Under the pieces are notes generated by a model. That model worked only from the letters and a program-made list of their open reading frames with translations, did not search any database and was not told the DNA's origin. From Nitrososphaeraceae archaeon (GTDB taxonomy: Archaea > Thermoproteota > Nitrososphaeria > Nitrososphaerales > Nitrososphaeraceae), in the NCBI GenBank assembly GCA_035297365.1, contig DATGZA010000058.1, positions 1-23,877 of the forward strand: a stretch of DNA of 23,877 bases, in the 5' to 3' direction. Of this stretch, positions 3,847-23,614 are shown piece by piece. Position 1 is the stretch's first letter. Every line of letters begins with the position of its first letter. Position numbers and translations under genes: made by a program.

Positions 3847-3882
3847 ATAATACAATATATAGGAGGAAGTCTTATTTAAAAA

Positions 3883-5913: not shown

Positions 5914-6016
5914 TGGCCCTAGAAAACTCCGGGCCCGTCGGGAGTAATACCGATAGTGGTGCGAAAATAAGAATCTAATGTATGGTGGTAAAGAGATAAT
6001 ATTTATGATTTACTTT
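5914..6016 (-). repeat. tRNA-3'-end-derived site 1 (left arm, core, type A right arm)
   Basis: tggccctagaaaactccgggcccgtcgggagtaataccgatagtggtgcgaaaataagaatctaatgta...ataatatttatgatttacttt. Confidence 0.9.
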
Positions 6017-6137
6017 TGAATACATATTTTTAAAAGATTAGTGTAATTTCTTTAGATTTTGGCTATTTCCAGTGTTTTGTGTTGTCTAAAAAAACCTCAC
6101 CATATTGTTTTCCTAGATTTGATTCCTTTAAGTATTT

Positions 6138-6433
6138 TCATATCATTAATTCTTTGATAATAGTTTTGTATTCTTCTGCTTTCAAAAATAATTCATAATT
6201 TAATTGATGTGATTCTTCAATTGTTGGCTTGATATCTTTGTTGGAACAATAAACAGAATAAAACAAAAGTACTTGTGCAAAAAATGCCCCCTAAAAAAAA
6301 TCCAAATCATTGGTTACTGTTTTCTTTAAATCATATGAAGGGTCCTGAAATACTTGAATTGTATAAGGTAGAGTATTGTATCTTCAGTGGCTTGATTAAA
6401 TAAGTTTCTAAGAATTTTTTCTCTATCCAACAT
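6138..6433 (-). pseudogene. Degraded hypothetical protein gene
   Basis: MLDREKILRNLFNQATEDTILYLIQFKYF, a frameshift, then TVTNDLDFF*GAFFAQVLLFYSVYCSNKDIKPTIEESHQLNYELFLKAEEYKTIIKELMI*. Confidence 0.55.
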
Positions 6434-6444
6434 TTATCAATAAT

Positions 6445-6548
6445 ATAAACTTGTTAAAAGATTTTGTTTTTTGACAATGAATGTCTTGATAATTACGAAG
6501 CTAAGAACAATAGTTTCAATCCTTGTTATGATGGATTTTGTTTTTTAC
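6445..6548 (-). CRISPR. Orphan CRISPR remnant: repeat, 37-nt spacer, degenerate repeat
   Basis: 6513-6548 gtttcaatccttgttatgatggattttgttttttac; on the minus strand it ends in the ATTGAAAC handle and has an ATCC/GGAT stem. A partial second copy cttgttaaaagattttgttttttgac ends at 6475. The spacer is 6476-6512. Confidence 0.75.
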
Positions 6549-6578
6549 TAGAAAATTAGGAACTAAAGCGGGTTAGTT

Positions 6579-6704
6579 ATGAAAAAGATATGGACAGATG
6601 ATATTGTAGAATTTAATGGAGAATTTTACAAAATACCAAATTCAATAATCGGTCCAAAACCTATTCAAAAACCTCATCCTAAAATCTATTCTGTTTACTG
6701 TTAA
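6579..6704 (+). pseudogene. Internal fragment of an LLM-class (luciferase-like) flavin/F420-dependent oxidoreductase
   Basis: MKKIWTDDIVEFNGEFYKIPNSIIGPKPIQKPHPKIY matches the LLM 'WT...V.F.G.FY......PKP.Q.PHP.I' segment. Only 41 codons are present. Confidence 0.8.
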
Positions 6705-6788
6705 ATATTTATTTATTAGGTTTATTTATCTTACATCTTTTTAATTATCTTTGTTGAAAGTGAATAAAATAAAGCTTTTTCCTATAAG

Positions 6789-7139
6789 TTAACTTAATAA
6801 CTTTAACACATTGCTAATAATTTGTGCATGATCTGCTTCTACTTCTGTAGTAATAAGCAATAAATGCTCATCATCTAATGGAATAGTAATTCGTTTAATT
6901 TTTTCATATTCTGTCATTGCATATTTTCCTTTTCCTGTTTTTGGAGATAAGAACTTTCTCAATCCCCATCCTTCTAAAGCTTGTAAATTTGATCTTCTTG
7001 TTTCTTCATTAGTTAGGATATTTTTTACTCCTTCTTTTTGACCACCATGTTTTATCTCTCCAGATACACCACATATTCCTGCAAATCTTATTTTAGAATC
7101 CATCTGTAAAATAGATCTACATAAATTATCATAGTCCAT
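6789..7139 (-). CDS. Thaumarchaeal roadblock/LC7-like protein (DUF6659-like)
   Basis: ILQMDSKIRFAGI...GKGKYAMTEYEKIKRITIPL..HLLLITTE pattern. Confidence 0.85.
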   Translation of the reverse strand: MDYDNLCRSILQMDSKIRFAGICGVSGEIKHGGQKEGVKNILTNEETRRSNLQALEGWGLRKFLSPKTGKGKYAMTEYEKIKRITIPLDDEHLLLITTEVEADHAQIISNVLKLLS

Positions 7140-7207
7140 ATATTAAATATTCAAAAATACAAATATTAATAGTTTTTAGATACTATTAATTTAGCGAATA
7201 CTTAACT

Positions 7208-7294
7208 GACCCATCGGGAGTAATACCGATAGCGGTGCTAAAAATAAGAGTCTAATGTAATAGTAATAAGATAATAATATTTAGGATTTACTTT
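7208..7294 (-). repeat. Site 2 (partial core, type A right arm)
   Basis: gacccatcgggagtaataccgatagcggtgctaaaaataagagtctaatgtaa...ataatatttaggatttacttt. Confidence 0.9.
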
Positions 7295-7327
7295 GCATCT
7301 TAATAATGATAAGAAAGTTAAAGTTTA

Positions 7328-7787
7328 CTAATTTAACAATTCTTTAACAGTACTTATTAATTCCTTTCTATCAATGGGTTTTATCAATATTTGTTCCTTG
7401 GATAAACTTGGAATTATAGTTAATATTTCATTTTATATATCTAATACAGTTATAAAAAGAATTTTAATTGTGGAATCGATTGATTTTATTTGTTGTTGTA
7501 ATTGAAATCCATTCAAATACTTCATTTTGATATCGAGTGTTACTAGTAGATCATTAAAATTTGGAAGATCTTTAATAAAATTCAATGCTTTGCAGGGATT
7601 TGTAAAAGACGTTATTTCATAACCTTTATCCTTTAAAAATGATTCATATGTAAAAAGTATATCTGGGTCATCATCGACTAAAATTATTCTTATGTTATTG
7701 CTTCTTTGAGTAAAAAATAAATCTTTTTCCCTTTTAGTTTCTGTAAAATCGTCGGTAGAGGTCGTATCATTTTATCAAGATATAATT
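7328..7787 (-). pseudogene. 5'-truncated copy of the receiver-domain half of the cyclase-REC gene at 15680-16759
   Basis: Collinear and highly similar to 15680-16140. It has an in-frame TAA at 7433-7435 (Pro in the intact copy) and no cyclase domain. Confidence 0.9.
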
Positions 7788-8176: not shown

Positions 8177-9532
8177 TCACATTAACTTATTTTGTTGTGC
8201 TATTCCTCTAGTAAATAGTATTTCATGATTACCTGGAGTAATATCTTCCCAAACAACATAAATATGATTATTAGTTACTGCAATTTGAGGACATTCTGAA
8301 ATACCTGTATTATTGCTTAGATTCGCTATTTTAGTAGTTGACGCATCATTTTTGATATTTACTATGAATATATCTTGGTTTTCTTTAGAAATTATATCTT
8401 GCCATACTATATAGGAGGGATCATTATTTGCTACTTCAACATTAGTAGGATGAGTAATTTTATTTACAGAAGAATTTTTGTTTTCAGGTTTTGTAACTTG
8501 AATTGTATATGGATCTGTAAAACTAGTGCCATTATCATCACTTTTAACAAAATATATATCTTTGATATTTTTTGAATGCAATCCTCCCCAAATTATCAAT
8601 ACTTCATCTTTAGATACTGATATTTGTGATTCTCCAAAATTATAATGAGCTAATATAATGCTATTTTCAAAAGCATTTCCTCTATCAGAACTTTTTATAA
8701 AAAATAGTCCACTATTTTCAATATCTTTAGAGAGGTCATTATTTTCACTATTCCAAACAATGTATACATAATCTTGATAAGAATTCACTTTTGGATAAGC
8801 ATCATTAGTATTGGTCGCTAATTCTATTGAATCATTAAATGTATTTCCACTATCAAAAGAACTCTTAAACATTATACTACTATTTTTATCATTATTTTGA
8901 TCGTAGTCAATATCTTGCCATACTAAGTATACATTTTCATTAAATGCAGAAAGTTCTACATTGTTAGAATTTTTAGAGTTATTGCTTAGGTTTATAGCTT
9001 TGCTAAATGTCACACCATTATCTTCACTTTTTGAAAATATAATTTCTGTATTATTAGAACCTGTGTTATCTGTCCAAACAATAAATATACCATTTTTAGT
9101 GACAGCAATCTGTGGGTGTTCTGAAAAGCCAGTATTATTACTCAAATTTATTGGTTTACTAAATGTATTTCCATTATTCTCACTTTTTTTAAAATGAATA
9201 TCATAGTTATTTTTATTTAATTTATCATTAACAGATTCTTGCCATACTAAGTATACGATATTGTCAATTGCAGATATCTGAGCATATACAGAATCAAGAT
9301 TATTATTTGTTATATTAGTAACATTTGAAAAGTTGAAGTCTGAGATAAGTGTACTATCAATACTATTTTTAGAGCTACTATTAAAGGATAACTTGTTTTC
9401 ATCAATTTCATCCGTTGCAGAAATCTCATAATAACAAAATAATGAACTTAGAATAATAAAGAATAGAATCAATTTCAGTTGATATTTATTAACTAAAAAA
9501 GGGATTAGGAGGTTTGACTTTTGAATATTCAT
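8177..9532 (-). CDS. Exported BNR/Asp-box repeat (sialidase-like beta-propeller) protein
   Basis: N-terminal hydrophobic segment and five Asp-box repeats (KSENNGNTF, KSEDNGVTF, SSFDSGNTF, KSSDRGNAF, KSDDNGTSF) with recurring VYLVWQ. The start is uncertain (ATG 9532 or TTG 9556). Confidence 0.9.
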   Translation of the reverse strand: MNIQKSNLLIPFLVNKYQLKLILFFIILSSLFCYYEISATDEIDENKLSFNSSSKNSIDSTLISDFNFSNVTNITNNNLDSVYAQISAIDNIVYLVWQESVNDKLNKNNYDIHFKKSENNGNTFSKPINLSNNTGFSEHPQIAVTKNGIFIVWTDNTGSNNTEIIFSKSEDNGVTFSKAINLSNNSKNSNNVELSAFNENVYLVWQDIDYDQNNDKNSSIMFKSSFDSGNTFNDSIELATNTNDAYPKVNSYQDYVYIVWNSENNDLSKDIENSGLFFIKSSDRGNAFENSIILAHYNFGESQISVSKDEVLIIWGGLHSKNIKDIYFVKSDDNGTSFTDPYTIQVTKPENKNSSVNKITHPTNVEVANNDPSYIVWQDIISKENQDIFIVNIKNDASTTKIANLSNNTGISECPQIAVTNNHIYVVWEDITPGNHEILFTRGIAQQNKLM

Positions 9533-9696
9533 ATTATTATTACTATAGAATTTCAATCTATTTATTTGTAAAATACATTACTCAAATATACTTGAAATAC
9601 AAAGAATTCTAAAAGATTTTTTGAAATGATATTGTAATATATGACTTATAACTATAAGACAGAGAGAACCATTTGCAATCATATTATGATTAATGT

Positions 9697-9736
9697 AGTT
9701 GAACCCGAGAAAACTACGGGCCCGTCGGGAGTTGAA
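9697..9736 (-). repeat. Site 3, best-preserved copy (left arm, longest tRNA-like core, unique right flank)
   Basis: agttgaacccgagaaaactacgggcccgtcgggagttgaa; the minus strand reads TTCAACT CCCGA CGGGCCC G tagttt TCTCGGG TTCAACT. Confidence 0.92.
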
Positions 9737-9839
9737 TAGCCACAGTTTCCGTGTTCAATGTTATTTTAAGATAAACTTATTATGATTTCTAAAAGGTTAG
9801 ATTTGGAGAAGAAAAATGAAAACCAAATAAATACAAAAA

Positions 9840-9960
9840 TTATATCATGTTGATCTCTTGTTCTTTGTATCATTTTGCTTCTCCCTCTGTTAATTTAAAA
9901 TACATGGTATCATCATTAAATCGCTCAAATAAATTTTTAGGGATGTTATCTTTATCCAAA
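9840..9960 (-). pseudogene. C-terminal fragment of a small Nitrososphaeraceae protein
   Basis: LDKDNIPKNLFERFNDDTMYFKLTEGEAK*YKEQEINMI* resembles the 'DKDKFY.PK.L..RFDG...YF..T.EEA..YK' family as I recall it. It has an internal stop. Confidence 0.45.
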
Positions 9961-10328
9961 CAGTATCTGGCAAAAGAAAAATCTCGATTAGATTAACTCA
10001 TAAAAAGAAACAATTCAATAATTAAAAAAAGATATAAAAAGAAAAATCAATGATGAAATCGGTCAAAGGCTTATTCTTATATGGATAAGATAAATAAAAA
10101 AGATATTGAAAATTCTAATTGAAAAAAGGAATTATTATGAGTCAAGAAAAATGTACATAATACAAATATTCGAAACTTGTAAACCTCATAGATAAGTAAA
10201 AATAGCCATAACTACATCCTTATCTTAAGTGACGTATTACTATATTCATATAGTAAAAACCATTTAGACTTTTCGAGTATTTTACATAGCCATCAATAAG
10301 TTGTAGGAAGAGAGGGGAATTTAGGAGG

Positions 10329-10871
10329 TTACTTACTGGCTATTTCCTGAATAAGGCTTCTGACTGTATTGATATCAAGGTCTAGCTGATCAGCAATCAT
10401 ATCATCCGAAATACTAGATTCATAAAGATTTCTCAACATTTCTTTCTTTTCACTGTCTATTATATTAGAAGGTGGATATAGCGATAGCTCTGCTTCAACT
10501 GATTTAACATATTGTTCGACCTTCTCAATAATATAGTCTGTATTGGTTCCCTTGTTTGCTGAAAGTACCAGTACATGATCTTTGACTGGAATGTTAAATA
10601 TCTTTACTTTATCATAATCAAAAAAAACACATTTTAAAGCACCTAATTCTGGTGAAAACATTCTTCTCAAGTCAACAACATAAGCAGTTTGAGCCAAATT
10701 CAATTCAGGATTTCTTCCCTTAAGATAATCCTCAAGGCCTTCTCTCATACCTCCTCCATACATATGTCCTGACTTTTCCACTACCCCAGCAAATCTAATA
10801 CCAGGATCTAGTTCTAAAATATTTTTTGAGAATTGCTCTGCTTTCATATTCAATATTAAGTGATTGTTCAT
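10329..10871 (-). CDS. Roadblock-like (DUF6659-like) protein with a C-terminal helix-turn-helix
   Basis: ILELDPGIRFAGVV...ELGALKCVFFDYDKVKIFNIP, then SDDMIADQLDLDINTVRSLI. Confidence 0.85.
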   Translation of the reverse strand: MNNHLILNMKAEQFSKNILELDPGIRFAGVVEKSGHMYGGGMREGLEDYLKGRNPELNLAQTAYVVDLRRMFSPELGALKCVFFDYDKVKIFNIPVKDHVLVLSANKGTNTDYIIEKVEQYVKSVEAELSLYPPSNIIDSEKKEMLRNLYESSISDDMIADQLDLDINTVRSLIQEIASK

Positions 10872-11128
10872 ATTTAGTCTTTCTGTACTGGCTGCATTAG
10901 TTGTTTTTGTATTAACTAATTATGAAGGTATCCGTTAAATCCAAATTAGAAAGTAACATAGTCAAGAACACGTTTGTAGGAATTACGATAGATTCATAAT
11001 TTCATTTTTACATGAATTTTACTCTCCTAACTGCTGAAATACTTAGCCCTATACATAGTAATGAGACATGAATTACCATTTACTGTAAAAAAAGTATTCA
11101 TTAATGTAATTCAAGTAAATTTGTGATA

Positions 11129-11228
11129 GTGAACCCAGAAAACTACGGGCCCGTCGGGAGTAATACCGATATCGGTGCGATAATAAGAGTCTAATATAGA
11201 GATACCACTGCCATGTAATGTAGCTTTT
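11129..11228 (-). repeat. Site 4 (left arm, core, type A right arm)
   Basis: gtgaacccagaaaactacgggcccgtcgggagtaataccgatatcggtgcgataataagagtctaata...tgtagctttt. Confidence 0.92.
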
Positions 11229-11270
11229 TTTGTTTAAGTTTATTATTTATCATTTACTATTAGTAGTACG

Positions 11271-11999
11271 CTATTGTCGTGGTATTACATTTATATCATA
11301 CTTAACCTCTGACACAAAATTAAGATTACTAGTGGTAGTAACATCTGCTAGCAATCCACTAGCATAAATAGTATGATGACCCACCGGTAACTCTTTTAGA
11401 ATAACAAATGTACCATCTGATATTGCTTCGGTAGTTTGTGGAGGAACACCAAGAACATTATTTTCGGGTAATGTAACATTAAATAATGATGAGGCTACTC
11501 TGTAATTTTGTAAATCCTTTACTGGTATCGAATCGACAATTAGTTTAACATCTTTTACAGCATCTTGGTCAGACTTGGCACAATTACGTAAATCTTTTTC
11601 ATGTTTGAGTTCAGGATATTCTGCGAAAGTACATATTACTTCAATAGGGCTTACCAGAATAGCCATTCCTTCAGGAATAGAACATTTTCTTTCTTCATAG
11701 CCACCACTGGTTCCTGCTAGAAACCATACATTAGGATTATTTTGATTCATATTACAGTACTGTCCGGTCCTATCTGTAGAAGGATTAGAATCATTAGGAG
11801 AAGAAAGTAACCATTTCCACCATTCTGTCGACCATTCTCCATAAATCAAACCATATGGTTTTTCATTTGGTAAAAAAATAGAAAATTCAGAAGCTTCAAC
11901 TAACATACTAGAATTATTATTGAAGTATAACAAAGATAACAACAGAGAAATTGACAAAATAGTGAAATTTCGTATAAGATCATTAAACACAGACATCAT
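11271..11999 (-). CDS. Conserved exported protein of unknown function
   Basis: Signal peptide, then WSTEWWKW...NP..D.TGQYC..NQ..PNVWFLAGT.GG..ERKC.IP.G.AIL, a conserved extracellular family. Confidence 0.88.
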   Translation of the reverse strand: MMSVFNDLIRNFTILSISLLLSLLYFNNNSSMLVEASEFSIFLPNEKPYGLIYGEWSTEWWKWLLSSPNDSNPSTDRTGQYCNMNQNNPNVWFLAGTSGGYEERKCSIPEGMAILVSPIEVICTFAEYPELKHEKDLRNCAKSDQDAVKDVKLIVDSIPVKDLQNYRVASSLFNVTLPENNVLGVPPQTTEAISDGTFVILKELPVGHHTIYASGLLADVTTTSNLNFVSEVKYDINVIPRQ

Positions 12000-12109
12000 T
12001 TCATCAAATACTATAAAAATTCTTCTAAACTAAAATTTTAAGAATTCAGCAATGATAAAATTTTATTTAACAATATTTAAATTAATAAAAAGATATCGTT
12101 ATGCATTGA

Positions 12110-13462
12110 TTGAATATTCACACTTTTGGTAATAACAAGATTTTCTATATTCTATCGTCATTATTAGTTTTAATTTTTTTGTTAGATATCAATATTCTAA
12201 AAACATTTGATTTAGTTAATAAAACTTATACAAACTATAGCATTTTTATTTTTCTTAGTATATCCGTAACTTTTTTGATTCTATCTTCTCTTATATTAAA
12301 ATACAATTGGAATTATATAAATGAGTTTATTAAAAAATCTAATAGAATTTATACTATATTCAAAATAACTCTACTAACTCAGGTTTTTCTATCTTCATTG
12401 CTTATACTTTTAAATTATGAAGTAATTATGTTACATTATTACTCTACGTATATAATAATAATATCTCTTTTCGGAAGTTATTCTTTAAGTTTTTTTATTC
12501 TTTTTTTCCTTACATACAAATTTTTACGTTGGTATAATATAAAAAGAAATTATATATTAATCTTTTATTCACTTGCTTTTGGTACGATATTTCTTGAATC
12601 AATTTTTAAATTAGGTTTCACGGAAATCATGATAATATTCAAACCTCAATTAATATTTCCCATGACAATAGGTTCGTCAATTTTTATCCCTGCTTACTCT
12701 CTTCAAGGTTATTTAAATAACATCTTTCCAATCTTATCTGTACTTTCTTTTGTCTTTGCTTGGATTGCTAGCTCCATTATGATGAAAGAATATTCAAGTA
12801 AAGTTGGTGGAATAATTAAATATTGGGTAATTGTTACCGTTCCATTAATTTTTTATATCAGTCAATTTTTTGTTCAATTTAACAGTCAAATTATTTTTCA
12901 GCTAACCTCCAATATAACATCTCTTAGTATCATTCTTACAATAGTTTTTATATTTAGTAAATTAATAGGAGGTTTATTATTTGGAATACCATTCTGGATA
13001 ATATCAAAAACAATTCATAACTCTGCTATAAAAACTTCTATGACAATAGCGGGATTTGGATTTGTCTTTTTATTTTTGACTAATCAAGCTCAGGGAATTG
13101 TTGTAACTCCATACCCTCCATTTGGAATTACTACAACTTTGTTTTTTGGTCTTTCTTCATTTCTTGTGATGATAGGACTTTATTGTTCTGCAATTTATAT
13201 TTCTGAAAATAGAGATATTAGAAAGCTAATAAGAAATGATATTCTCAAATATGATTTGTTACGACAGATAAGCAATAGGTTTATAGAAGATAAAACAATT
13301 AATTATATTAACCAAATTAGAAAATCGTCTAAAAATGAATTATTTGTAGATTACAATAGGTTATTTTTAAATGATAAAGACATAAAACAATATGTTAAAG
13401 ATGTAATTGATGAAATAAGTAAAAAAAATGATAACGGTAACAAGAATAATAAAAAAGAATAA
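12110..13462 (+). CDS. Polytopic membrane protein of unknown function
   Basis: 450-aa ORF with about 10 hydrophobic segments, a PYPPFG motif and a charged C-terminal tail. Confidence 0.85.
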   Translation: MNIHTFGNNKIFYILSSLLVLIFLLDINILKTFDLVNKTYTNYSIFIFLSISVTFLILSSLILKYNWNYINEFIKKSNRIYTIFKITLLTQVFLSSLLILLNYEVIMLHYYSTYIIIISLFGSYSLSFFILFFLTYKFLRWYNIKRNYILIFYSLAFGTIFLESIFKLGFTEIMIIFKPQLIFPMTIGSSIFIPAYSLQGYLNNIFPILSVLSFVFAWIASSIMMKEYSSKVGGIIKYWVIVTVPLIFYISQFFVQFNSQIIFQLTSNITSLSIILTIVFIFSKLIGGLLFGIPFWIISKTIHNSAIKTSMTIAGFGFVFLFLTNQAQGIVVTPYPPFGITTTLFFGLSSFLVMIGLYCSAIYISENRDIRKLIRNDILKYDLLRQISNRFIEDKTINYINQIRKSSKNELFVDYNRLFLNDKDIKQYVKDVIDEISKKNDNGNKNNKKE

Positions 13463-13480
13463 GAGGCATTCCAAGTTCGG

Positions 13481-13553
13481 CGGGAGTAATACCGATAGCG
13501 GTGCAAAGATAAGAGTCTAATGTTATAGTGAAGAGAATATTTAAAAATTACTT
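13481..13553 (-). repeat. Site 5 (end of core, type A right arm)
   Basis: cgggagtaataccgatagcggtgcaaagataagagtctaatgttatagtgaagagaatattta. Confidence 0.9.
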
Positions 13554-13868
13554 CTCAACAATTATAAAAGTTTGAATTCTCTAAAATTTAGAATAAGAAA
13601 AAACAAAAAAATAACCATTAAAACATAAAGTTAAAATTTCATATATTTCGTCTTTCTCAGTCTTAACTAGTAGTTAATCCTAGGTGCCATATTATTTCTT
13701 TTATAGTCTTTATATATTGCACAGTAACAGATTCATGTTGGAGAATTCAGACGGTTCAAATCATTTATAACATTTTTAAATTTTCAATATTTATTATAGT
13801 GCCCAAAATAGTCTAAATTATAAAATTTAAATTTGGTTTACCATAATATAAAATCCATAACGATTATT

Positions 13869-14131
13869 ATGACTATCTTTGATGTATTTGCATTCATCAG
13901 TGGAATTATCCAATAGGAGTAGGTAGCCTTTTACTTTATTCTTTCTTAGCTAGACCTTATAAGCAAAATGGTGTAACAGTCAGAGGAATTTTTTTTATTG
14001 GTCCAATTCCAATAGTACTTAATAATGACAACCAAGACATTAATTTATTATCTATAATATTTTCGATATCTTTAATAGCAGTATTTTTTGTTTTATTCTT
14101 TTTTATCCTTTTAAATTATATTAATTTATAG
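13869..14131 (+). pseudogene. DUF131/TIGR00304-like small membrane protein, frameshifted
   Basis: MTIFDVFAFISGII, one base missing near 13910, then IGVGSLLLYSFL...VRGIFFIGPIPIVL...*. GxFFIGPIPIV is the family signature. Confidence 0.75.
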
Positions 14132-14133
14132 AA

Positions 14134-15095: not shown

Positions 15096-15476
15096 ATTAT
15101 TATAAGGTTGTTTAGTTATTTTAGTTTAATATCACAGTCAAAGGTAAGATAATTATAGTACAAACATTCTAAATATTATTTGCAAATAAAGAAAATATAT
15201 AAGAAAAGGTAATTCCTTAACACTCAATAAAAATCAATAGTAATAGTTGCAGATCATGTTTTGATACATGAAAACGAAATGAAAGATTATTTAGATTATG
15301 TGAAATTCTGAGAGATACAATAGTTATGACAACAACAACAAAACTACTTCCGAATTTACTAAAATGTTAAAGATGCTCTGAAACTCAGTATAATAGTAAA
15401 TTTGAACTAACAAGGCTGTTTGAATTTTAGTTCTTTTTAACAATAGGGTTAGCCTACATTTTCAGCAAGCTGCTCT

Positions 15477-15530
15477 GGAGTAGTGCCCTCAATGTAGAAT
15501 GGTTCTACTCTCTTATATTTAGCTTCTATT
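15477..15530 (-). repeat. Site 6 (degenerate type B right arm)
   Basis: ggagtagtgccctcaatgtagaatggttctactctcttatatttagcttctat aligns without gaps to 20643-20695. Confidence 0.75.
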
Positions 15531-15589
15531 ATTGAGAACTTAAATTGATTTTGTCGTATCAGAAAGTTTTAGGAACTCGATATTCACTT

Positions 15590-15646
15590 CGTCGGGAGTA
15601 ACATTGATAGCGGTGCAAAAATAAGATAATATTTAAGATTTACTTT
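15590..15646 (-). repeat. Site 7 (partial core, internally deleted type A arm)
   Basis: cgtcgggagtaacattgatagcggtgcaaaaataagataatatttaagatttacttt. Confidence 0.85.
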
Positions 15647-15679
15647 ACATCCTAATAATGATAAGAAAGTTGAATATTA

Positions 15680-16759
15680 CTAATTTAACAATTTTTTAAC
15701 AGTGCTTATTAATGCCTTTCTATCAACGGGTTTTATCAATATTTGTTCCTTGGATAATCCTGGAATTATAGTTAATATTTCATCTGGTATGTCTAAAACA
15801 CTTATAAAAAGAATTTTAATTGTGGGATCGATTGATTTTATTTGCTGTTGTAATTGAAATCCATTCAAATCTTTCATTTTGATATCGAGTGTTACTAGTA
15901 GATCATTAAAATTTGGAAGATCTTTAATAAAATTCAATGCCTTGCAGGGGTCTGTGAAAGAAATTATTTCATAACCATTTTCCTTTAAAAATGATTCATA
16001 AGTAAAAAGTATATCTGGGTCATCATCGACTAAAATTATTCTTTTGTTATTGCTTCTTTGAGTAAAAAATAAATCTTTTTCTCTTTTAGTTTCTGTAAAA
16101 TCGTCAGTAGAGGTAGTAATACTATTATCAAGATACAATTCATTAATTTTTTTTATACTGTATGTAGGGTATCCAATTGTTTCGGTTATCTTACATTCAC
16201 CATTGTTTATAAAATTATAATTGTTAGCAATATTAGAAAACGATTTTAAAATTCTATAAAAATTATCTCCAATAATTATTTGATTTACAATAGACAGGGA
16301 TGAATTTATCTTTGAACAGCGGTTTACTGTTGCCCCGAATAAATCTATCTGGCTATAATCACCAACTAAAGCTAAATCTAAAACACCAAAATCCATGCTA
16401 ATTCTATAGCTGAATGGGGGAAGATGCTGCTTGGATAATTCTTGATTAAGAGTAAAGCGGGAATCTAAGATTTTCAACCCGCATTCAATCACTTCTCTAA
16501 AAGCCTTTTCGTTTTTAGTATCAGATGCTTTTGGAAAATATAATAATAAACAATCACCAATATTCTTAATGACTTTCCCACCATAACTTTTAACTATTTC
16601 TGATATTGAATTCATAAATTTAGAATAATAAATTCTAATATGTTCTAATTTGTCCATTGTAATGGTATTTTGAGTAGAATCTACCAAATCAATAAAAACT
16701 ACACAACTCTTTATTGAATCACCAGAAAATCTAATTTCTTGTGAAGAAAAATTTTTCAT
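15680..16759 (-). CDS. Class III nucleotidyl (adenylate/guanylate) cyclase domain fused to a C-terminal receiver domain
   Basis: Cyclase motifs FIDLVDST, VIKNIGDCLL, IDLFGATVN; REC motifs IILVDDD, LDIKMKDLNG, IKPV. Confidence 0.93.
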   Translation of the reverse strand: MKNFSSQEIRFSGDSIKSCVVFIDLVDSTQNTITMDKLEHIRIYYSKFMNSISEIVKSYGGKVIKNIGDCLLLYFPKASDTKNEKAFREVIECGLKILDSRFTLNQELSKQHLPPFSYRISMDFGVLDLALVGDYSQIDLFGATVNRCSKINSSLSIVNQIIIGDNFYRILKSFSNIANNYNFINNGECKITETIGYPTYSIKKINELYLDNSITTSTDDFTETKREKDLFFTQRSNNKRIILVDDDPDILFTYESFLKENGYEIISFTDPCKALNFIKDLPNFNDLLVTLDIKMKDLNGFQLQQQIKSIDPTIKILFISVLDIPDEILTIIPGLSKEQILIKPVDRKALISTVKKLLN

Positions 16760-16819: not shown

Positions 16820-17374
16820 TTAGTGGTTGTAAGATTTTTGAACCTTATTTACAAAGCTAAAGAAGTCTTGAACTGAATCGTTATAGTATTTTTGTGCAAT
16901 TTCCATAGATTTGTTAACGGTTTCTGAGTATCCAAATACACAGTCATTTATTCTTCGTGTAGCATTTATTGCATTATCTTTAATATTTTGGTTGGTATTA
17001 CTATAAACATCTGTATATTCTTGTGGATAAATAAATTTATTCCAATAAGATTTGTTATTATATATATTATCTATAAATTTGGAAAATACTGATTGATAAG
17101 TATTAAGAATATTTTTTTGTAAATCCCCATAGTTGTTAGAGATTGATTGGATTGTGTTAATATTTTGTTCTTGATATTTGTTTGTTGTACCTATATTTTT
17201 TTCAAGAATGTCATTCTTTGTCTTTTGATATTCATTGATAGTATTAGTAATCCTATTCGTTCTTTCAGTGAAATTACTGTTGCCTTTGTTAAGTCTAGCT
17301 GTATTTTTTTCATTAAATTTTGGTTTATTTATAGTTATATTTTCATTTCTTTTTATTTCTTCTTTTGTCAACAC
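16820..17374 (-). CDS. Asn/Gln-rich helical hypothetical protein of a Nitrososphaeraceae family
   Basis: Long ORF (TNKYQEQNINTIQSISNNY...ATRRIND...NKSMEIAQKYYND). The likely start is GTG/TTG at 17374/17371, about 25 nt after a TTTATA box; the ORF track begins at 17434. Confidence 0.8.
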   Translation of the reverse strand: MLTKEEIKRNENITINKPKFNEKNTARLNKGNSNFTERTNRITNTINEYQKTKNDILEKNIGTTNKYQEQNINTIQSISNNYGDLQKNILNTYQSVFSKFIDNIYNNKSYWNKFIYPQEYTDVYSNTNQNIKDNAINATRRINDCVFGYSETVNKSMEIAQKYYNDSVQDFFSFVNKVQKSYNH

Positions 17375-17831
17375 AATTATATTTCTATTGCTAAGGTATA
17401 TAAATGTACATAATGATGTCCAGTGCATAGTCATATTTGTTTTTGTATGATCTACTTATTTGTATAATTGGACGCAATATATTTACAATTACCATAATTA
17501 CAAGTAAAGGAGAGGAGATAAGTACTGAAACATGAGTAATACAATTTATCAATTCTTGTTTTCTAGCATATTGATTCAGGAATTTCTGTTACTTGACTAT
17601 ATTAAAAGTAAAAATTAGATAAAATTATAAAAAATATATATAAAATAGATATTCTTTACAAAGTTTTATATTACTAGCAATTTAGTCATATGTTTTATCA
17701 AAAAAAATTGAAATCGTCTTTAACATTCATTAACTATAAGGGGCGTTTTTAGATGACAACTTTATCTTCGATAATTCGGTATAAAGTAGAATTTAAATAT
17801 AGCATTTTGTGGCATATAAAACAAGTAGCAG

Positions 17832-18382
17832 ATGACTAATTCATCTTTTCCACAATTATCTGGTAAGCTAGTCAATTTAAGAGAACCTTCAAGTGATGAT
17901 GTTACAAATATAGTAAATCTTATGAGTTATGATATAGCTAAATATCTTTATGAAGTTCCATATCCTTATAAGATAGATGATGCTTAAAATTTATTAAATC
18001 TAGTTGTGATGATTTTAGGCTACATAAATCAATAACTTTTGCTATAGACTATAAAAATAAATTTCAATCAGTTCGTCTACTAGTTGGAATTATAGCTATT
18101 AAAGATATTGATTATGTTAATAAAAAAGCAAATATAGGATACTGGATTGGCCAACAATATCATGGCAAAGGCACAGCAACAGAATGTATTGAACTCGTCG
18201 TTAACTACGCATTTGACGTATTGGAATTGAAAGAGATTTCAGCTTATGTTTTTCCAAAAAATAAACCTTCTATAAGAGTTTTGGAAAAAAATCGTTTTGT
18301 AAAGACAAAGAAAGTAAATGAATACCATCCTATCACAAATAGTTATAGAAATTCTTTAGTTTATATAATAAAAAAATACTAA
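17832..18382 (+). pseudogene. RimJ/RimL-type GNAT N-acetyltransferase, frameshifted
   Basis: MTNSSFPQLSGKLVNLRE...VPYPYKIDDA, one base missing near 17985, then KFIKSS...ANIGYWIGQQYHGKGTATE...AYVFPKNKPSIRVLEKNRF. Confidence 0.88.
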
Positions 18383-18424
18383 ATAGTAAATTGTAAAGAA
18401 CATAATTTTAGCACTTATATCAGC

Positions 18425-18464
18425 ACGGGCCAGTCGGGTTGAGTGGCATTTTTGCCTCTATTTT
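18425..18464 (-). repeat. Site 8 (core, type C right arm)
   Basis: acgggccagtcgggttgagtggcatttttgcctctatttt, nearly identical to 23575-23614. Confidence 0.85.
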
Positions 18465-18558: not shown

Positions 18559-19283
18559 ATGGGCGATTTTGTTATCTCAGCAGATAGTACTCTTATCAAG
18601 ACTAAAGGTTCTGTCTGGCATAAATCCTCTACGACTAAAGAAATAGTACCACATTCTGGTATCGATACTGATGCAAGATAGGGATTCAGTTATACAAAGG
18701 AGGGTTGGATATTTGGATACAAATTACATTTGATATCAACTACTGGTTCCATTATAGTACCATTGGCAGCAGATTTTACAACAGCCAACATACCTGACAA
18801 TCAAATATACAGTACAGTAACATGCAGTCTGCCTGTTACAAACACAAGAGAAACATATTATATGTCTGCAGATCCTGGATACGATGATCATAAACTGTAC
18901 GATCTCAGCAGAGATATGGGATTTCAATTGGTGTGTCCGGTACAGAGATATGAAAATATACCTGCTGACAGGATAAAATTAGTTGAATTTTATGAATCTA
19001 ATATTGGACAGGCTATCTATTCTCTAAGAAGTATATCAATTGAACCATTGATAGAACATATCAAATCTATCTTTAGAATAGACCCATTACCTGTAAGAGG
19101 ATATGATAAGGCTTGTGCAGCAGTACTATTGTCAGTCTTGCTGTACCACATACTTGTGTATTATAACTGTAAAACTAACAAAAAGAATCCCAGAGCAATC
19201 AAATACATGCTACGAACATAATGATTGATTACATGCTACTATTAGCATGATAATACTTGTTCACTGAATTATGACCCATCCTC
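18559..19283 (+). mobile_element. Defective IS with a DDE_Tnp_1-type (IS4/IS5-like) transposase pseudogene
   Basis: In frame from 18559: ISADSTLIK...GIDTDAR*GFSYTKEGWIFGYKLHL...SADPGYDD...RSISIEPLIEHIK. TAG at 18679-18681 replaces a Trp, the N-terminus is missing, and the ORF stops at 19221. A possible right end is ttatgacccatcctc. Confidence 0.85.
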
Positions 19284-19289
19284 AGATAT

Positions 19290-19466
19290 TTAATCTTCAA
19301 AGAAAGGTCTATGTTGAACATCGAAACCTGGAGAGATATTTGCAAATTGCATTATTGTGATCATTTTGCATACTTTGTCCTGTAACTCTGAATGTTCAAT
19401 AAATTTCTTTTTACAAATAGGACATTTAGTTTCTTTTCCTACATTCATAATGTTACTATCGCTCAT
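19290..19466 (-). CDS. Small putative zinc-binding protein (58 aa)
   Basis: MSDSNIMNVGKETKCPICKKKFIEHSELQDKVC. The start is placed at ATG 19466 because its upstream region is homologous to that of the gene starting at 20405. Confidence 0.7.
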   Translation of the reverse strand: MSDSNIMNVGKETKCPICKKKFIEHSELQDKVCKMITIMQFANISPGFDVQHRPFFED

Positions 19467-19549
19467 TACATTGTTGAATGCGAATTTAATATATCTATGA
19501 TTAGAAGGAACCTTATCTAATGTTCTAATATTCATCCATTCTGAATTAT
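19451..19549 (-). promoter_or_regulatory. Duplicated promoter/start region, copy 1
   Basis: Ungapped 99-bp similarity to 20390-20488, with a TATATTAAA box roughly 20-25 nt before the ATG on the minus strand. Confidence 0.7.
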
Positions 19550-19694
19550 TCACAATTAGAAAAATCGAGATTGATCTTAGTATAAAAAGATAATATTTAT
19601 CCTAATTTTGTACCCTATACATTGGTATTAGTAATATCGTTAAAGTAATACATTGATCAATTTGTATTTGTAGGAAAAAATGAAAAATAGAAAA

Positions 19695-20405
19695 TTAAGG
19701 CATATGTTCTGGTGGTATATCCACACATGTTGCAAATGCTTGTATACTAACCTGAGAACCTGATAGTGGTGATTGGGTTGATACAAACCATTTGTTATCA
19801 AGATTCGGAGGAGGATCTATTGGTAATTGAAAGGAATCTAGAAAATTGTCATTAGTTAGAACACCGGTAAAATGAAATCCGCCATTTAATAAAAGATCTT
19901 CAGGGTCACATTCTGCTATAGATGATATAACTTGACCCTCAGCACCTATATCTGTAGTAGGATTTTCTCCAAGCACTCTATATATTTTAAGATCTTCAAA
20001 AGAGGGACCTCCTGGAATCTCCAAATTACAGACCATTGGTGAGGTTACAAAGAATCCTTTAAACTGTCCAGTTTTACAGACAAATTTGTGATCTTTGGTT
20101 GGGTGTTTACTATAATCTTTATGATAATTATCTCCATATTTATCAGCAAATTCTAATTTTATATTCGAATCATAACCGTCGTCATCATAATCGTTGTAGT
20201 CTTGGTTATAATAATTGTTATCCTCATATCCGCGTTGATAGTCGTCTTGGTAATAGTTGTTATTATCATCATATCCATACTGGCCGTAGTACATTTGTGC
20301 AACTGCATTTGTAATTGTTGACGGGTTTAGAGCCAATAGTCCTGTCGCTAATATTGCTGCCAATATAGAGGCAAAAACTATCATTCTGTTGTTACTATTG
20401 CTCAT
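19695..20405 (-). CDS. Exported Tyr/Asp/Asn-rich protein of a Nitrososphaeraceae surface-protein family
   Basis: Signal peptide ending AVAQ, a Y/D/N low-complexity tract, the motif YSKHPTKDHKFVCKTGQFKGFFV....C, and a C-terminal AECDPEDLLLNGGF...AFATC domain. Confidence 0.88.
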   Translation of the reverse strand: MSNSNNRMIVFASILAAILATGLLALNPSTITNAVAQMYYGQYGYDDNNNYYQDDYQRGYEDNNYYNQDYNDYDDDGYDSNIKLEFADKYGDNYHKDYSKHPTKDHKFVCKTGQFKGFFVTSPMVCNLEIPGGPSFEDLKIYRVLGENPTTDIGAEGQVISSIAECDPEDLLLNGGFHFTGVLTNDNFLDSFQLPIDPPPNLDNKWFVSTQSPLSGSQVSIQAFATCVDIPPEHMP

Positions 20406-20488
20406 TACATTGTTAAAAGTGAATTTAATATATCTATGGTTAGAAGGAACATTATCTACTCTTGTAATATTTCAAGACTCTGAATTAT
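20390..20488 (-). promoter_or_regulatory. Duplicated promoter/start region, copy 2
   Basis: Homologous to 19451-19549. Confidence 0.7.
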
Positions 20489-20614
20489 CTAATGTAAGAA
20501 GAATAGAAAATAATGTTAAAGTAGAAAACAAAATCTCTTCCTCACATATTTTCTAATAGACAGGTTAATAGAATAATATTATCTTAATCTAGTCATCTAT
20601 CTGGTCATGTATGA

Positions 20615-20695
20615 TGGACCCTAGAAAACACCTGGCCCGTCGGGAGTAGAGCCTTCCATGTAGTAGAGTTCTACTACATAGTATTTAGCTTTTAT
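20615..20695 (-). repeat. Site 9 (left arm, core, type B right arm)
   Basis: tggaccctagaaaacacctggcccgtcgggagtagagccttccatgtagtagagttctactacatagtatttagcttttat. Confidence 0.9.
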
Positions 20696-20847
20696 CATCA
20701 AGAAGTTAGAAAGTAAAATAATTGTACAATAATCGACTAATCTTCATTTGGTTCGATAGAATCACCTAAAAATTTCAACACAATTCTTTTTCTTTTCTAT
20801 CAAATATGAAATACTGTTTTATACAACATATGAAATAAAGCAGTTTA

Positions 20848-21033
20848 TTGGAACAGAGAAGAATAGGAATAATTTTCATGGTCTTAGGCGCTGTCATATT
20901 GGTAATTCCGTTAATTATAACTATAACAGAGAGTTCCATTCGAATATTTGTTCCAATGATTGCGTTAATACTTTTACTTTTTGGTTTTCCAATAATATTA
21001 AGTAGTAAGAAAGACAAGAATATAGAAAATTAG
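20848..21033 (+). CDS. Small two-helix membrane protein
   Basis: TTG start, two hydrophobic helices with basic flanks (QRR...; SKKDK). Confidence 0.6.
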   Translation: MEQRRIGIIFMVLGAVILVIPLIITITESSIRIFVPMIALILLLFGFPIILSSKKDKNIEN

Positions 21034-21074
21034 ATAAATACAAACAAAATCTCTACCATAATGAATATAGAGAA

Positions 21075-21143
21075 TAATACCGATAGCGGTTCTAAAATAA
21101 GAGTATGTTGTAGATATACTATTACATTGTATTTAGCTTTTAT
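21075..21143 (-). repeat. Site 10 (type A right arm only, core lost)
   Basis: taataccgatagcggttctaaaataagagta...ctattacattgtatttagcttttat. Confidence 0.8.
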
Positions 21144-21182
21144 TAAGAACTATTATAAAAATCAAAATTTTCTGGGATATAA

Positions 21183-21261
21183 TGAATCCGAGAAAAGTAA
21201 TACTCCTCGGGAGTAGAATCTTCCATATAGTAGGGTTCTACGACATCATATTTAGCTTTTT
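21183..21261 (-). repeat. Site 11 (left arm, degenerate core, type B right arm)
   Basis: tgaatccgagaaaagtaatactcctcgggagtagaatcttccatatagtagggttctacgacatcatatttagcttttt. Confidence 0.85.
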
Positions 21262-21401
21262 AGTAATATAATAGTATTATCAATTTATTATATCTTTCAA
21301 AAATGATAAGGAAATAGAATTTTATTAAATTTATAATAATTTACGGCTCCCTTGGTAAAGTAGCAGTTATATTATAAAATTCTATTATGTTTCTGTGCCA
21401 A

Positions 21402-21780
21402 CTATTTACAGAAATTATGTGCTTCTGACATACTAGGACTATTGTTAGTAGGATGAATATGTTGTTCTTGTAGTTCAAATTCCATAGGTCCCATCTTTGC
21501 TTTTTTTATTTCTGGAATTAATAAGATAAACAAAATAATTCCCAATGTTACTAAATAACCTTCTGATATATCCATAAGTTGTGTTTCTTTTGCAGTATTT
21601 GTAGCGGTGTTGGGAGTATTCGTAGTAGTGTTTGGAGTATATGAAAATAGAATTATATTACTAATAATATGATATGTAATGTAACAGTTGAACCCAATAA
21701 TAATGCAAATAAAGTTATACCAACTATTTTTTTAAATATCGATGACTTCCAGAAGTCCCAGAAATTTTGAAAATGTTGAG
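21402..21780 (-). pseudogene. C-terminal membrane-anchor fragment of a larger protein, truncated next to the IS6 remnant
   Basis: NFWDFWKSSIFKKIVGITLFALLLGSTV, a frameshift, then YTPNTTTNTP...YLVTLGIILFILLIPEIKKAKMGPMEFEL. It has no start. Confidence 0.6.
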
Positions 21781-21781
21781 T

Positions 21782-22069
21782 ACGTGGTATCCTCGGGCAA
21801 GTAACTTTTTAGATTTGAAACATCGATTACATTCACCATAGAAAAGAGTTTGATTGAAAGGGTAATGCAATATTTCAAGGACAGAATTGAATCTTCTGAT
21901 AATTACTATCCTTGTAATAACAATTAATAACAATAACAATAAAGAAAATTGTGGTCTATCACATATATACAATTGGATGAAATTATTTGTATATTTCTAT
22001 AATTCAGAAATGAGAAATGAAACTCTATCCCTTAAATTAGGAGACGAGCCAACTTAAGTTAACAGCACC
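21782..22069 (+). mobile_element. IS6-family remnant (transposase C-terminus and right end)
   Basis: TWYPRASNFLDLKHRLHSP / EKSLIERVMQYFKDRIES.DNYYPC...CGLSHIYNWMKLF with stops and frameshifts. The end reads GGTGCTGTTAAC on the minus strand, like IS6 GGYNCTGT termini. Confidence 0.8.
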
Positions 22070-22138
22070 CTGTTAACTATCTACAACGATTAATAATATT
22101 GAAAGAAATGACCAAATCAAGAAAATGCACAATTAATA

Positions 22139-22783
22139 TTACATTCCACCTCTTCTTTTCAAGAGTTTAAAAGCAATGTTTGGTCCCATTTTCTGTCTAA
22201 TGACCAATTCAATCCACAATAACGCCAATTGTTCCAGCAGTCTTGCATTAATAAGAGGACCAACATCTACAACATCAAAACCTACTTCTTTTGCTAATTT
22301 CGTTACTACGGATTTTGCTTTAAAATCGTCTCCGCAAATAAAAGTATCTGCTCTATAAGAATCAAATTGGAGGTCATTCATAGTCTTCGCACCTATGGCA
22401 TTAAATGCTTTCACCACCTTAGAACTTTTACACCATCTTGCAATCTCTTCAGCAGCTGATGTTGAAGGTTCGACTACTAAACTTTTTAGATCTTTACTAA
22501 TTGGATTAGTAAGATCCACCAAGATCTTTTCAGATAAATCTCCAGCATTTTCGATAGTTTCTTTTGCTGCCTCCCAAGGTACGCACAATACTACTACATC
22601 TCCAAACGAAGCTGCTTCGCTAATGATTCCAACTTTAATATCGGAGCCTAGAGATTTTAACATATTTTGAACTTTAGAACTATTGATGTTTCTAACTCCA
22701 AAGACAACCTGATTTCCTTTTCTTATCCATCTATTTCCCAGAGTGCTGCCAACATCACCAGCTCCAATAATTCCGATTTTCAT
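22139..22783 (-). CDS. NADPH-dependent F420 reductase family oxidoreductase
   Basis: Rossmann MKIGIIGAGDVG, VVLCVPW, KILVDLTNP, VVKAFN, ICGDD..AK..V..L...VGFDVVDVGPL..AR.LE. Confidence 0.92.
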   Translation of the reverse strand: MKIGIIGAGDVGSTLGNRWIRKGNQVVFGVRNINSSKVQNMLKSLGSDIKVGIISEAASFGDVVVLCVPWEAAKETIENAGDLSEKILVDLTNPISKDLKSLVVEPSTSAAEEIARWCKSSKVVKAFNAIGAKTMNDLQFDSYRADTFICGDDFKAKSVVTKLAKEVGFDVVDVGPLINARLLEQLALLWIELVIRQKMGPNIAFKLLKRRGGM

Positions 22784-23140
22784 ATCAATTATCTTGTAGA
22801 TGATCTCTTCCAGTATTTTAGTTGGTCGTTTCCTTTCATTTAAAGTAAAATTTTACTTCTGTAATAAAACTATATACCAATTTTAGGTAAATCATTTTTC
22901 CAGTTTCGATTGACTAGATTTATTTAACTATAATATCGAATCTAAAAAGAAAACTTTGTAAGTAAGAAATACAATACATCATATGACAATAAAATTTGGA
23001 TATGGCTACGACGTGTGCGAGCTGCTATAAGAAGATTCAAGACTATCCAATATATTGTAATATATGTGATGATTATTTTTGTTCTGACCAATGCCACATT
23101 AAAAATCATAATAAACAAGGGGAAAGTTTTTGACTATAAT

Positions 23141-23480
23141 TAGAACCTACCCGAAATTATCCACCTAGAAACAATAATGCTACTTGCTATTTGTACAAGA
23201 CCAAGATAGTTTTCTACCTTCTTTTCATACCTTGTAAACAATTTCCTGTCTCTGTTATGCCATGAATTTGTTATTTCTACAACCCATCTTCTTGCTGGAT
23301 GATATCTTCTCTTACCCGATACTTTTTCTCTTCTATGTCTTATTTGTGATATGTATCCTCTTTTGATAATTTCTTGTTCTACATCTTTGAATGATATACT
23401 TTATCAAGGCTAGGTTCTATTTTTTTGTATTTTTGTCTTTGGATTGTCTTCATGGTGGCTTGATAACTTTACTGTCTAAA
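23141..23480 (-). mobile_element. IS5-family remnant (transposase C-terminus and right end)
   Basis: EQEIIKRGYISQIRHRRE...PARRWVVEITNSWHNRDRKLFTRYEKKVENYLGLVQIA, with an upstream LDK motif out of frame. The probable end is tagaacctacccgaaa at 23141. Confidence 0.85.
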
Positions 23481-23558
23481 TCAAATGGTAACTTTAAAGA
23501 ATTTGAACAGATCTCTTAATGAATCATCTAATTAACTAAGAAATATATCTGTATGATG

Positions 23559-23614
23559 TGGTCCATAGAAAAGTACGGGCCCGTCGGGTTGCGAGGCATT
23601 TTTGCCTCTATTTT
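23559..23614 (-). repeat. Site 12 (left arm, core, type C right arm)
   Basis: tggtccatagaaaagtacgggcccgtcgggttgcgaggcatttttgcctctatttt. Confidence 0.9.

Follow-up and report, generated by a model that had tools for sequence, protein, structure and literature searches.

A probable tRNA-Lys accretion island in a Nitrososphaeraceae genome

We analysed a window comprising the whole of contig C58 (DATGZA010000058.1; 23,877 nt) of a soil ammonia-oxidising Nitrososphaeraceae archaeon, in which twelve related intergenic repeats lie between positions 5914 and 23614. Where it is preserved, the core of these repeats matches the 3′ end of tRNA-Lys, and we propose that the window probably belongs to a genomic island in which integrative elements targeting tRNA-Lys accreted in tandem, with later integrase loss and exchange between sites. 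The process is a known one and the locus a tidy example of it, in a lineage for which no prior description was found: at the level of titles and passages, the literature surveyed describes no arrays of this kind in Nitrososphaeraceae. The host genome (2.52 Mb, 30.5% G+C, rated 97% complete) is a fragmented metagenome-assembled genome (MAG) of 110 contigs, and was compared among others with the near-complete relative G017, which is 90–93% identical to it in the tRNA-Lys flank.

Under the proposed mechanism, crossover would take place in a core formed by the last 13–20 nt of tRNA-Lys(UUU), from the 3′ strand of the T-stem through the acceptor strand, and elements with different tyrosine integrases would insert into the end of tRNA-Lys, or into a resident element's copy of that end, duplicating the core each time. 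Newer arrivals would displace older elements away from the tRNA, and the older elements would shed their integrases and most of their genes while retaining attachment (att) junctions built as ‘P arm – core – P′ arm’. At these junctions the integrases of intact elements, together with core-to-core recombination, ordinary deletions and insertion sequence (IS) activity, would exchange, delete and re-insert modules. The outcome would be a series of 0.5–9 kb modules that share the orientation of the tRNA and hold cargo genes as well as gene fragments. We infer this order of events, the pairing of integrases with sites and the link between the window and the contig that bears the tRNA.

Island-building by stacked elements is already known from bacteria. 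Soil ammonia-oxidising archaea have large, flexible genomes in which the sources of variation are poorly mapped, and the locus offers one concrete mechanism. Several integrase families share a single tRNA-Lys end as their docking site, and copies of that end mark the seams of islands that carry signalling, redox and unknown genes. The conserved arms beside these copies give a simple sequence tag by which such islands and the limits of their modules can be found in MAGs, whose assemblies usually break there.

The target tRNA-Lys and the integrases behind it

A whole-genome ARAGORN scan placed an intact tRNA-Lys(UUU) gene with an anticodon-loop intron on the minus strand of the 2.4-kb contig C64 (497–584), and Rfam RF00005 matched it over its full length (56.8 bits) with a 15-nt insertion that represents the intron. 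The 3′ end of this tRNA is identical to the site cores, over 13–20 nt at six sites. An earlier interpretation of the window made from its letters only (the sequence-only reading) had recognised the core as a tRNA 3′ end and had predicted both an intact minus-sense tRNA gene with this exact ending and a recombinase near it, and both were found. The recombinase is an integrase open reading frame (ORF) that begins 64 nt past the tRNA 3′ end in the same sense and continues for 144 codons to the contig end, so that its N-terminal part is present. It is 79% identical to a 405-aa integrase located behind tRNA-Lys in G022, whereas its identity is 42–43% both to a 429-aa protein of G019 and to a 370-aa paralog that is intact on contig C78. 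The integrase alignment contains the tyrosine-recombinase motifs SSGIR..G, H..RK and GH....YY, and matches to the PHROG family phrog_1 ‘integrase’ were obtained with E values of 9e-13 and 9e-11; matches to PF00589 (Phage_integrase) were below cut-off.

The window itself has no tRNA gene according to ARAGORN, and the statement of the sequence-only reading that none of its segments encodes an integrase was borne out by Pfam searches of the 20 ORFs and by tblastn with five integrase types, which gave no match on the window. For the tRNA-side integrases, no integron-integrase model matched at E ≤ 0.1 and the archaeal XerA model matched weakly, at 27–33 bits where its cut-off is 220. In the PDB, neither the type-C integrase sequence nor a four-sequence profile had any match. 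A ‘suicidal’ partition of the integrase gene, as in the Sulfolobus spindle-shaped virus (SSV) type, was considered and rejected, since the SSV-type integrase family PF16795 has no match in the genome and the integrase ORFs start past the core and are intact in relatives.

Across the genus, tRNA-Lys is an integration hot spot with at least three integrase families directly behind the tRNA. An intact tRNA-Lys end was present in 20 of 25 genomes (21 loci), and in 14 of the 21 loci the contig stops less than 1 kb away on the 3′ side, which is what breakage of assemblies at a repeat would produce. Seventeen loci retain at least 46 nt of downstream flank. In ten of these an integrase region starts after the tRNA (type 1 in five, type 3 in three and type C in two, one of which is the host genome); the remaining seven show the P′0 arm described below (five loci, with no integrase in the sequence at hand) or a further arm (two loci).

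C64 also contains a partial second tRNA match at 2072–2128 (+; RF00005, 31.9 bits, model positions 10–63), located 1.5 kb upstream of tRNA-Lys on the opposite strand and not called by ARAGORN. On C78 (16092–17705), two type-1-like integrase genes stand face to face, one intact (370 aa) and one truncated (204 aa); this pair is a separate element, since no A arm (see below) lies nearby. A second tRNA-linked integration site is found at C12:33265–34699, where tRNA-Thr(CGU) is directly followed by a 468-aa Phage_integrase ORF.

Site architecture, distribution and homology breakpoints

Scanning both strands of the window with a 13-nt core and allowing up to two mismatches recovered six copies, all on the + strand, against 0.01 matches expected. 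The sites were then scored by local alignment to the real tRNA-Lys 3′ end, with a null of 1775 windows (99th percentile, score 16). The match is clear at six sites (5914, 16/16; 9697, 20/20; 11129, 16/16; 23559, 13/13; 18425, 12/13; 20615, 18/20), and short core remnants above the null 99th percentile remain at three (7208, 11/12; 15590, 10/10; 21183, 11/12). Site 13481 is borderline (9/10, score 15, between the null 95th and 99th percentiles). At 15477 (7/8, not above the null) and 21075 (no match) a tRNA-like core is absent by local alignment, and these two belong to the set through their arms only. What the sequence-only reading had described as twelve same-orientation copies of one family is therefore a related repeat set, present on the + strand and intergenic at all twelve coordinates, that is real and non-random, and mixed rather than uniform. 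The AGTTGAA extension, which had been taken as a general feature of the core, occurs at 9697 alone.

To the right of the core, the sites carry arms of type A (5914, 7208, 11129, 13481, 15590 and 21075), type B (15477, 20615 and 21183) or type C (18425 and 23559), the arm at 9697 being unique. A conserved left arm, P′0, is present at 5914, 9697, 11129, 20615, 21183 and 23559. The usual layout of a tyrosine-recombinase site is an arm, a core and an inverted arm. A profile hidden Markov model (HMM) of the A arm matches the arm between tRNA and type-1 integrase in all five type-1 loci, inverted relative to the core (E 3e-5 to 0.015), and the C arm at 23589–23614 is an inverted copy of the arm between tRNA and integrase on C64. 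The core-flanking arms are therefore attP arms. Given the inverted arms at the integrases, free elements should carry ‘arm – core – inverted arm’, and each window site would represent the far arm of one element, the core and the near arm of the next. Site 12 is likely the far end (attR) of the youngest element, because its C arm is the inverted copy of the tRNA-Lys-integrase arm on C64.

As observed directly, the cores are direct repeats on one strand with element-derived arms on either side, and the A, B, C and P′ arms match integrase-side arms elsewhere. Junctions that still include an integrase were found outside the window: ‘A arm – core – P′ arm – integrase’ at C63:280–920, with an N-terminal fragment of a type-3 integrase (64% identity), and the same arrangement with a full-length type-3 integrase in G017 (C8, near 291.6 kb). 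At site 8, 20 nt of the type-1 near arm are kept and the integrase is gone. The conserved 1.1-kb stretch adjoining this site on the left was considered as an integrase remnant and rejected, being a frameshifted GNAT gene. Across the host genome, A-arm copies differ from their consensus by 0–13 mismatches in 40 nt (median 5), a graded decay that fits scars of different ages. Derivation of the A arm from a decayed tRNA body was rejected, as local alignment was no better than for shuffles (574 of 2000 reach the observed score). Within the core, crossover may fall in ...TCGGGAGT or in the GGGCCC palindrome.

A repeat of ~40 nt (family D8), here called module X, recurs at 14713–14752, 15503–15542, 20669–20708 and 21119–21166. 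It follows B arms and one A-arm subtype, and bounds an 820-nt winged-helix module (14723–15541) that is 94% identical in G017.

Counted with nhmmer and an A-arm profile on the genome contigs, the host genome has 29 A arms on 10 contigs, many of them without a core. Their orientation is uniform within contigs (C58, 6/6; C20, 8/8; C63, 6/6; C14, 2/2; C23, 2/2). The A arm occurs in all 24 other genomes of the same genus, with dozens of copies in each that cluster in islands, and is absent from the 16 genomes compared from the order's other families, and the same repeat is found in 58 stretches elsewhere, all from Nitrososphaeraceae or Nitrososphaerales MAGs. In G017, tRNA-Lys is followed by a type-3 integrase and then by seven co-oriented A arms within 41 kb, the last of which is a full ‘A – core – P′0’ site; seven of the eight A arms in the 45 kb past this tRNA have the tRNA orientation. 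End k-mers with 141-nt overlaps order the left side of the window as rc(C68)>C99>C58, show that C64 and C65 share an end, and place assembly branch points at sites. As C99 and C68 hold further sites, the island extends beyond the 5914–23614 span. The accretion model predicts the order rc(C68)–C99–C58–gap–C64, in which the gap would contain the remainder of the type-C integrase element and tRNA-Lys would stand at the head.

Breakpoints of homology were collected from comparisons of the window with three sets of sequence, namely the remainder of its own genome, 210 kb of G017 and 64 loci in further genomes, using high-scoring segment pairs (HSPs) of ≥300 nt and ≥75% identity; the padded site spans make up 7% of the region. 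Site spans contain 27 of the 113 informative HSP ends (8.1 expected) and seven of the 34 clustered breakpoints (2.4 expected), a result equalled by 82 of 10000 circular shifts. The enrichment of breakpoints at sites is real.

The 460-nt module 20643–21104 is present in three contexts (window, C99 and G017); at one edge its homology stops at ...GGGAGT, and at the opposite edge it breaks off within the A arm, following AAGAGT. The F420-reductase module, including its P′0 arm, is shared with G017 at 95% identity, but across the core G017 has an A arm in place of the C arm. Five unique window blocks (2256–2576, 3002–3085, 3083–3952, 4616–5152 and 20643–21104) lie inside the G017 tRNA-Lys island, all co-oriented with the tRNA and in changed order, and the site-4 junction recurs in G012 along with the same DUF6659 gene. 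At the core itself, an occupied and an empty site were observed, as the sequence-only reading had anticipated for related genomes. G017:C10 has the order GNAT – P′1 remnant – core – A arm – ~0.8 kb – P′0 – core – C arm, and window site 8 has GNAT – P′1 remnant – core – C arm with identical flanks. The two differ by exactly one 802-nt unit between direct cores, which, with a largest ORF of 98 aa, cannot encode its own integrase.

Assembled Logan contigs from public soil runs (four runs, four studies) span single junctions at 95–100% identity and tend to end at sites; their spans include 11142–14413, 21061–23248, 22119–23604 and 9765–11175. Since these independent contigs and other species hold the same junctions, the array is not an assembly chimera.

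Tandem accretion weighed against other explanations

Several observations weigh against accretion in its plain serial form. P′0 occurs at six sites, never with an integrase behind it, where plain serial integration predicts one such flank per array, and in five genomes it directly follows the intact tRNA, with unrelated DNA past ~27 nt. Integrase pseudogene traces are absent from all window segments (tblastn, E ≤ 1e-3; none credible at E ≤ 10 in 17201–18460), whereas decayed autonomous modules should leave some. Sites with tRNA-Lys cores also occur far from tRNA-Lys: G017 has nine exact 16-nt cores on six contigs in both orientations, and a second island (C8:177–315 kb) with 20 more A arms, 15 on one strand and five on the other. 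The sites mark several islands rather than one array, which, by the criterion set in the sequence-only reading, weakens the picture of serial scars at one tRNA. The suggestion of at least 12 serial integrations at a single tRNA did not hold, as only six to nine of the sites keep tRNA sequence and sites lie on 10 contigs of the host genome. Synteny breakpoints, which the sequence-only reading expected at the sites, are enriched there as described above, but most of them (27 of the 34 clusters) lie outside sites, and a few fall within the A arm and not at the core. No common end k-mer joins C58 to C64, and the right end of C58 is without a partner; signs of continuity are indirect, namely the matched inverted C arms and the window blocks inside the G017 tRNA-Lys island.

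Taken together, the P′0 pattern, the missing integrase traces, the distant cores and the 802-nt unit keep alive a view based on mobilisation in trans. The array would then be an active, integron-like or satellite cassette platform, a working store rather than a graveyard, whose integrase-less units each carry one complete site (P′0 – core – A/B/C arm), are excised as circles and are re-inserted at any core by integrases from elsewhere. We regard this as rather unlikely, and are equally doubtful of its genus-scale version, in which hundreds of 0.5–3 kb units would depend on the integrases of a few resident elements and several islands per genome would act as exchangeable gene stores. An integrase acting in trans may move cassettes, and the 802-nt unit is one good hint of it, although this unit could be the remnant of a larger element. 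The circular junction that it implies, P′0 – core – A arm, is the type seen most often among full-length sites; modules common to several species keep their orientation and change order and island; and sites outnumber integrases, with 29 A arms against 15 places, mostly fragments, that match an integrase family by tblastn in the host genome. The lack of integrase remnants in the window fits as well.

Against such a platform stand the graded decay of the A arms, one orthologous A arm that is less conserved than its own module, the gene fragments and pseudogenes in many modules, and the integrase searches described above, which found no IntI-type enzyme and only weak XerA-model matches. Moreover, the public-run contigs contain no circular junction or empty-site read. 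The ‘goes back’ joints 14760>13485, 23614>9695 and 20677>14723 and the ‘skip’ 13519>14718 have a short side of 20–38 nt and match paralogous site arrangements; as paralogous repeats explain them, these Logan joints were not used as circles or deletions. A better supported joint, 15102>9759 (side 96, run X5), gives the DUF6659 module another left neighbour. An exact-pattern scan of IMG/VR for a free attP-bearing element gave no matches, a result that says little because a single degenerate 28-mer was used. If small units do move in trans, they would constitute an archaeal counterpart of cassette systems, and a cassette economy of this kind would be a functional analogue of integrons with an independent archaeal origin from attP/attB sites.

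The array is not an integron, contrary to the analogy drawn by the sequence-only reading. It resembles integrons and clusters of attC sites lacking integron integrases (CALINs), archaeal integrons included, in its co-oriented small gene units between recombination sites, in the large excess of sites over integrases and in reshuffling between genomes. However, it has no IntI-type integrase and no attI or cassette promoter (Pc) platform, many of its units are multi-gene or fragments, and its sites consist of a tRNA end and attP arms and are probably not attC hairpins. In a comparison by folding and core sequence, the A-type sites show no more structure than shuffled sequences, which together with their tRNA-derived core argues against attC.

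A dispersed repeat of the miniature inverted-repeat transposable element (MITE) or repetitive extragenic palindromic (REP) kind, spread by transposition or kept as a regulatory or structural motif and resembling a tRNA by chance, is very unlikely. The genus-wide multiplicity of the A arm and its many coreless copies would suit such a repeat, and the scattering in both orientations that would be typical of it is seen across six contigs of G017. Within host contigs, by contrast, co-orientation is strict, unlike transposon insertions, and up to 20 nt of the core coincide exactly with the end of a real tRNA-Lys that has integrases beside it. The aligned copies have no terminal inverted repeats or target duplications, and no DDE transposase is associated with them, the only one in the window being an unrelated IS fragment.

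Slightly less probable still is a conserved promoter, terminator or small-RNA element of paralogous island genes, as might be suggested by the intergenic position of all copies, by most genes to the left of full sites in the window reading away from the site, and by a stable palindrome in the B arm (z −2.4). The sites match no Rfam family at E ≤ 1, a lone CRISPR-repeat match lying elsewhere, and on both strands the folding of A-type sites is no better than that of shuffled sequences (z −0.6 to +0.6). Around 54 copies in G000 and G017, neighbouring genes are oriented inconsistently: on the core side 23 read away and 28 toward, and on the tail side 20 read away and 32 toward. An assembly or binning artefact, in which strain mixtures or chimeric joins at repeats mimic an array, could draw on the 141-nt end overlaps, the branch points at sites and the breaking of public contigs there, and is the least credible explanation, as single soil-run contigs span the junctions, other species share them and comparable arrays lie inside long contigs of G017.

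Among described mechanisms, tandem accretion with decay to integrase-less units comes closest. Passages of PMC5704250 report, for bacteria and with a tRNA-Lys island among the cases, a three-step accretion that includes integrase-less cis-mobilisable elements (CIMEs) that keep their att sites. The arrays treated there (ICESt1/ICESt3 family and streptococcal tRNA-Lys islands) share with ours integration at a gene 3′ end, there too of tRNA-Lys, residents that decay yet keep att sites, further integration into a resident's att site, co-oriented arrays, chimeric att junctions and possible mobilisation by the integrase of a neighbour. In contrast to these, the present array is archaeal, from soil Nitrososphaeraceae; it has more units, which are much smaller (0.5–9 kb, mostly one or two genes), one core is common to three or more divergent integrase families, and no conjugation genes were seen.

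The tycheposon islands of Prochlorococcus, as outlined in bioRxiv 10.1101/2020.12.28.424599, consist of elements stacked one behind another with partial tRNAs between them and older fragments scattered about, and are likewise hypervariable islands through which degenerate elements, fragmented integrases and partial tRNAs are spread. They belong to another domain and use other integrases; the likeness drawn here is one of island architecture, and in our case the attP arms form a genus-wide repeat family. Closer in phylogeny are the integrated elements of Archaea and specifically Thaumarchaeota, for which passages of PMC6563490 and PMC8371274 report tyrosine-recombinase integration into tRNA genes (intron-bearing ones included), very short att sites (median 17 bp), tandem integration and integrase loss. 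The tandem cases described in these passages are pairs, not dozen-junction arrays with modules of one or two genes, and the terms ‘tRNA-Lys’ and ‘Nitrosocosmicus’ are absent from the main text of PMC6563490.

Cargo genes and further features of the island

The sites and the genes between them are compiled in Table 1.

Table 1 Repeat sites and other features of the window, with positions on contig C58
Feature	Position	Strand	Description
Site 1	5914–6016	-	P′0 5914–5929, 16-nt tRNA-Lys core 5930–5945 (16/16), A arm 5946–6016; tRNA sense minus
Site 2	7208–7296	-	12-nt core remnant 7210–7221 (1 mismatch) and A arm, without P′0
Site 3	9697–9760	-	P′0, 20-nt core 9717–9736 reaching into the T loop, arm seen nowhere else in the genome
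Site 4	11129–11235	-	P′0, 16-nt core 11146–11161, A arm; junction also in species G012
Site 5	13478–13556	-	A arm and 10-nt core remnant with 1 mismatch (borderline)
Site 6	15474–15542	-	B arm and module X (repeat families D6, D8), without significant tRNA core
Site 7	15590–15646	-	10-nt core remnant and A arm missing ~24 nt of the family consensus
Site 8	18405–18464	-	20-nt P′1 remnant (type-1 integrase-side arm), 13-nt core 18426–18438 (1 mismatch), C arm
Site 9	20615–20708	-	P′0, core 20634–20647, B arm and module X
Site 10	21075–21145	-	A arm, no core; right edge of the 460-nt module 20643–21104
Site 11	21183–21275	-	Degenerate P′0, 12-nt core remnant 21207–21218, B arm
Site 12	23559–23614	-	P′0, 13-nt core 23576–23588, C arm
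DUF6659-like protein	6789–7139	-	116 aa; Pfam E 6e-5, below cut-off
Cyclase/receiver paralog fragment	7265–7787	-	92% identical to 15620–16140
BNR-repeat-like protein	8177–9556	-	459 aa; Pfam below cut-off
DUF6659 protein	10329–10871	-	180 aa; Pfam
Two ORFs without family match	11271–13462		242 aa minus, 450 aa plus
Winged-helix protein (HTH_45)	14832–15095	-	Multi-copy family
Adenylate/guanylate cyclase with receiver domain	15680–16759	-	Multi-copy family
GNAT acetyltransferase, frameshifted	17829–18379	+	Intact (183 aa) in G017
DDE transposase fragment	18730–19221	+	IS remnant
NADPH-dependent F420 reductase-like protein	22139–22783	-	
Start of presumed youngest element	23615–23877		Runs off the contig; last 33 codons of a minus-strand ORF

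The pair of ORFs at 11271–13462 is kept as one block in other species, where it ends in the site-5 A arm. The cyclase and receiver family has many copies in every genome of the genus, represented here by 15680–16759, by the truncated copy at 7265–7787 and by C63:4528–6177, and its homology regularly begins at the tail of an A arm.

An orphan CRISPR-repeat-like sequence is located at 6513–6549 on the minus strand (Rfam CRISPR-DR7, 43.6 bits, E 6e-6), with no second copy within six mismatches in the whole genome. Beside it, an open stretch at 6579–6700 (+), part of which (6575–6685) matches C20 at 89%, is presumably similar to the N-terminal portion of a luciferase-like F420-dependent oxidoreductase and would then be a gene fragment. 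The site-free left part of the window (1–5900) encodes a histidine kinase, a bPH/SHOCT protein and others, and some of its blocks lie within the G017 tRNA-Lys island. Finally, a 140–300-nt repeat at 19451–19588 and 20390–20527 has ~30 copies genome-wide, many of them on C11, C13 and C31; it spans the upstream region and first codons of the minus-strand ORFs 19290–19553 and 19695–20405, and suggests a large paralogous family whose 5′ region is conserved.

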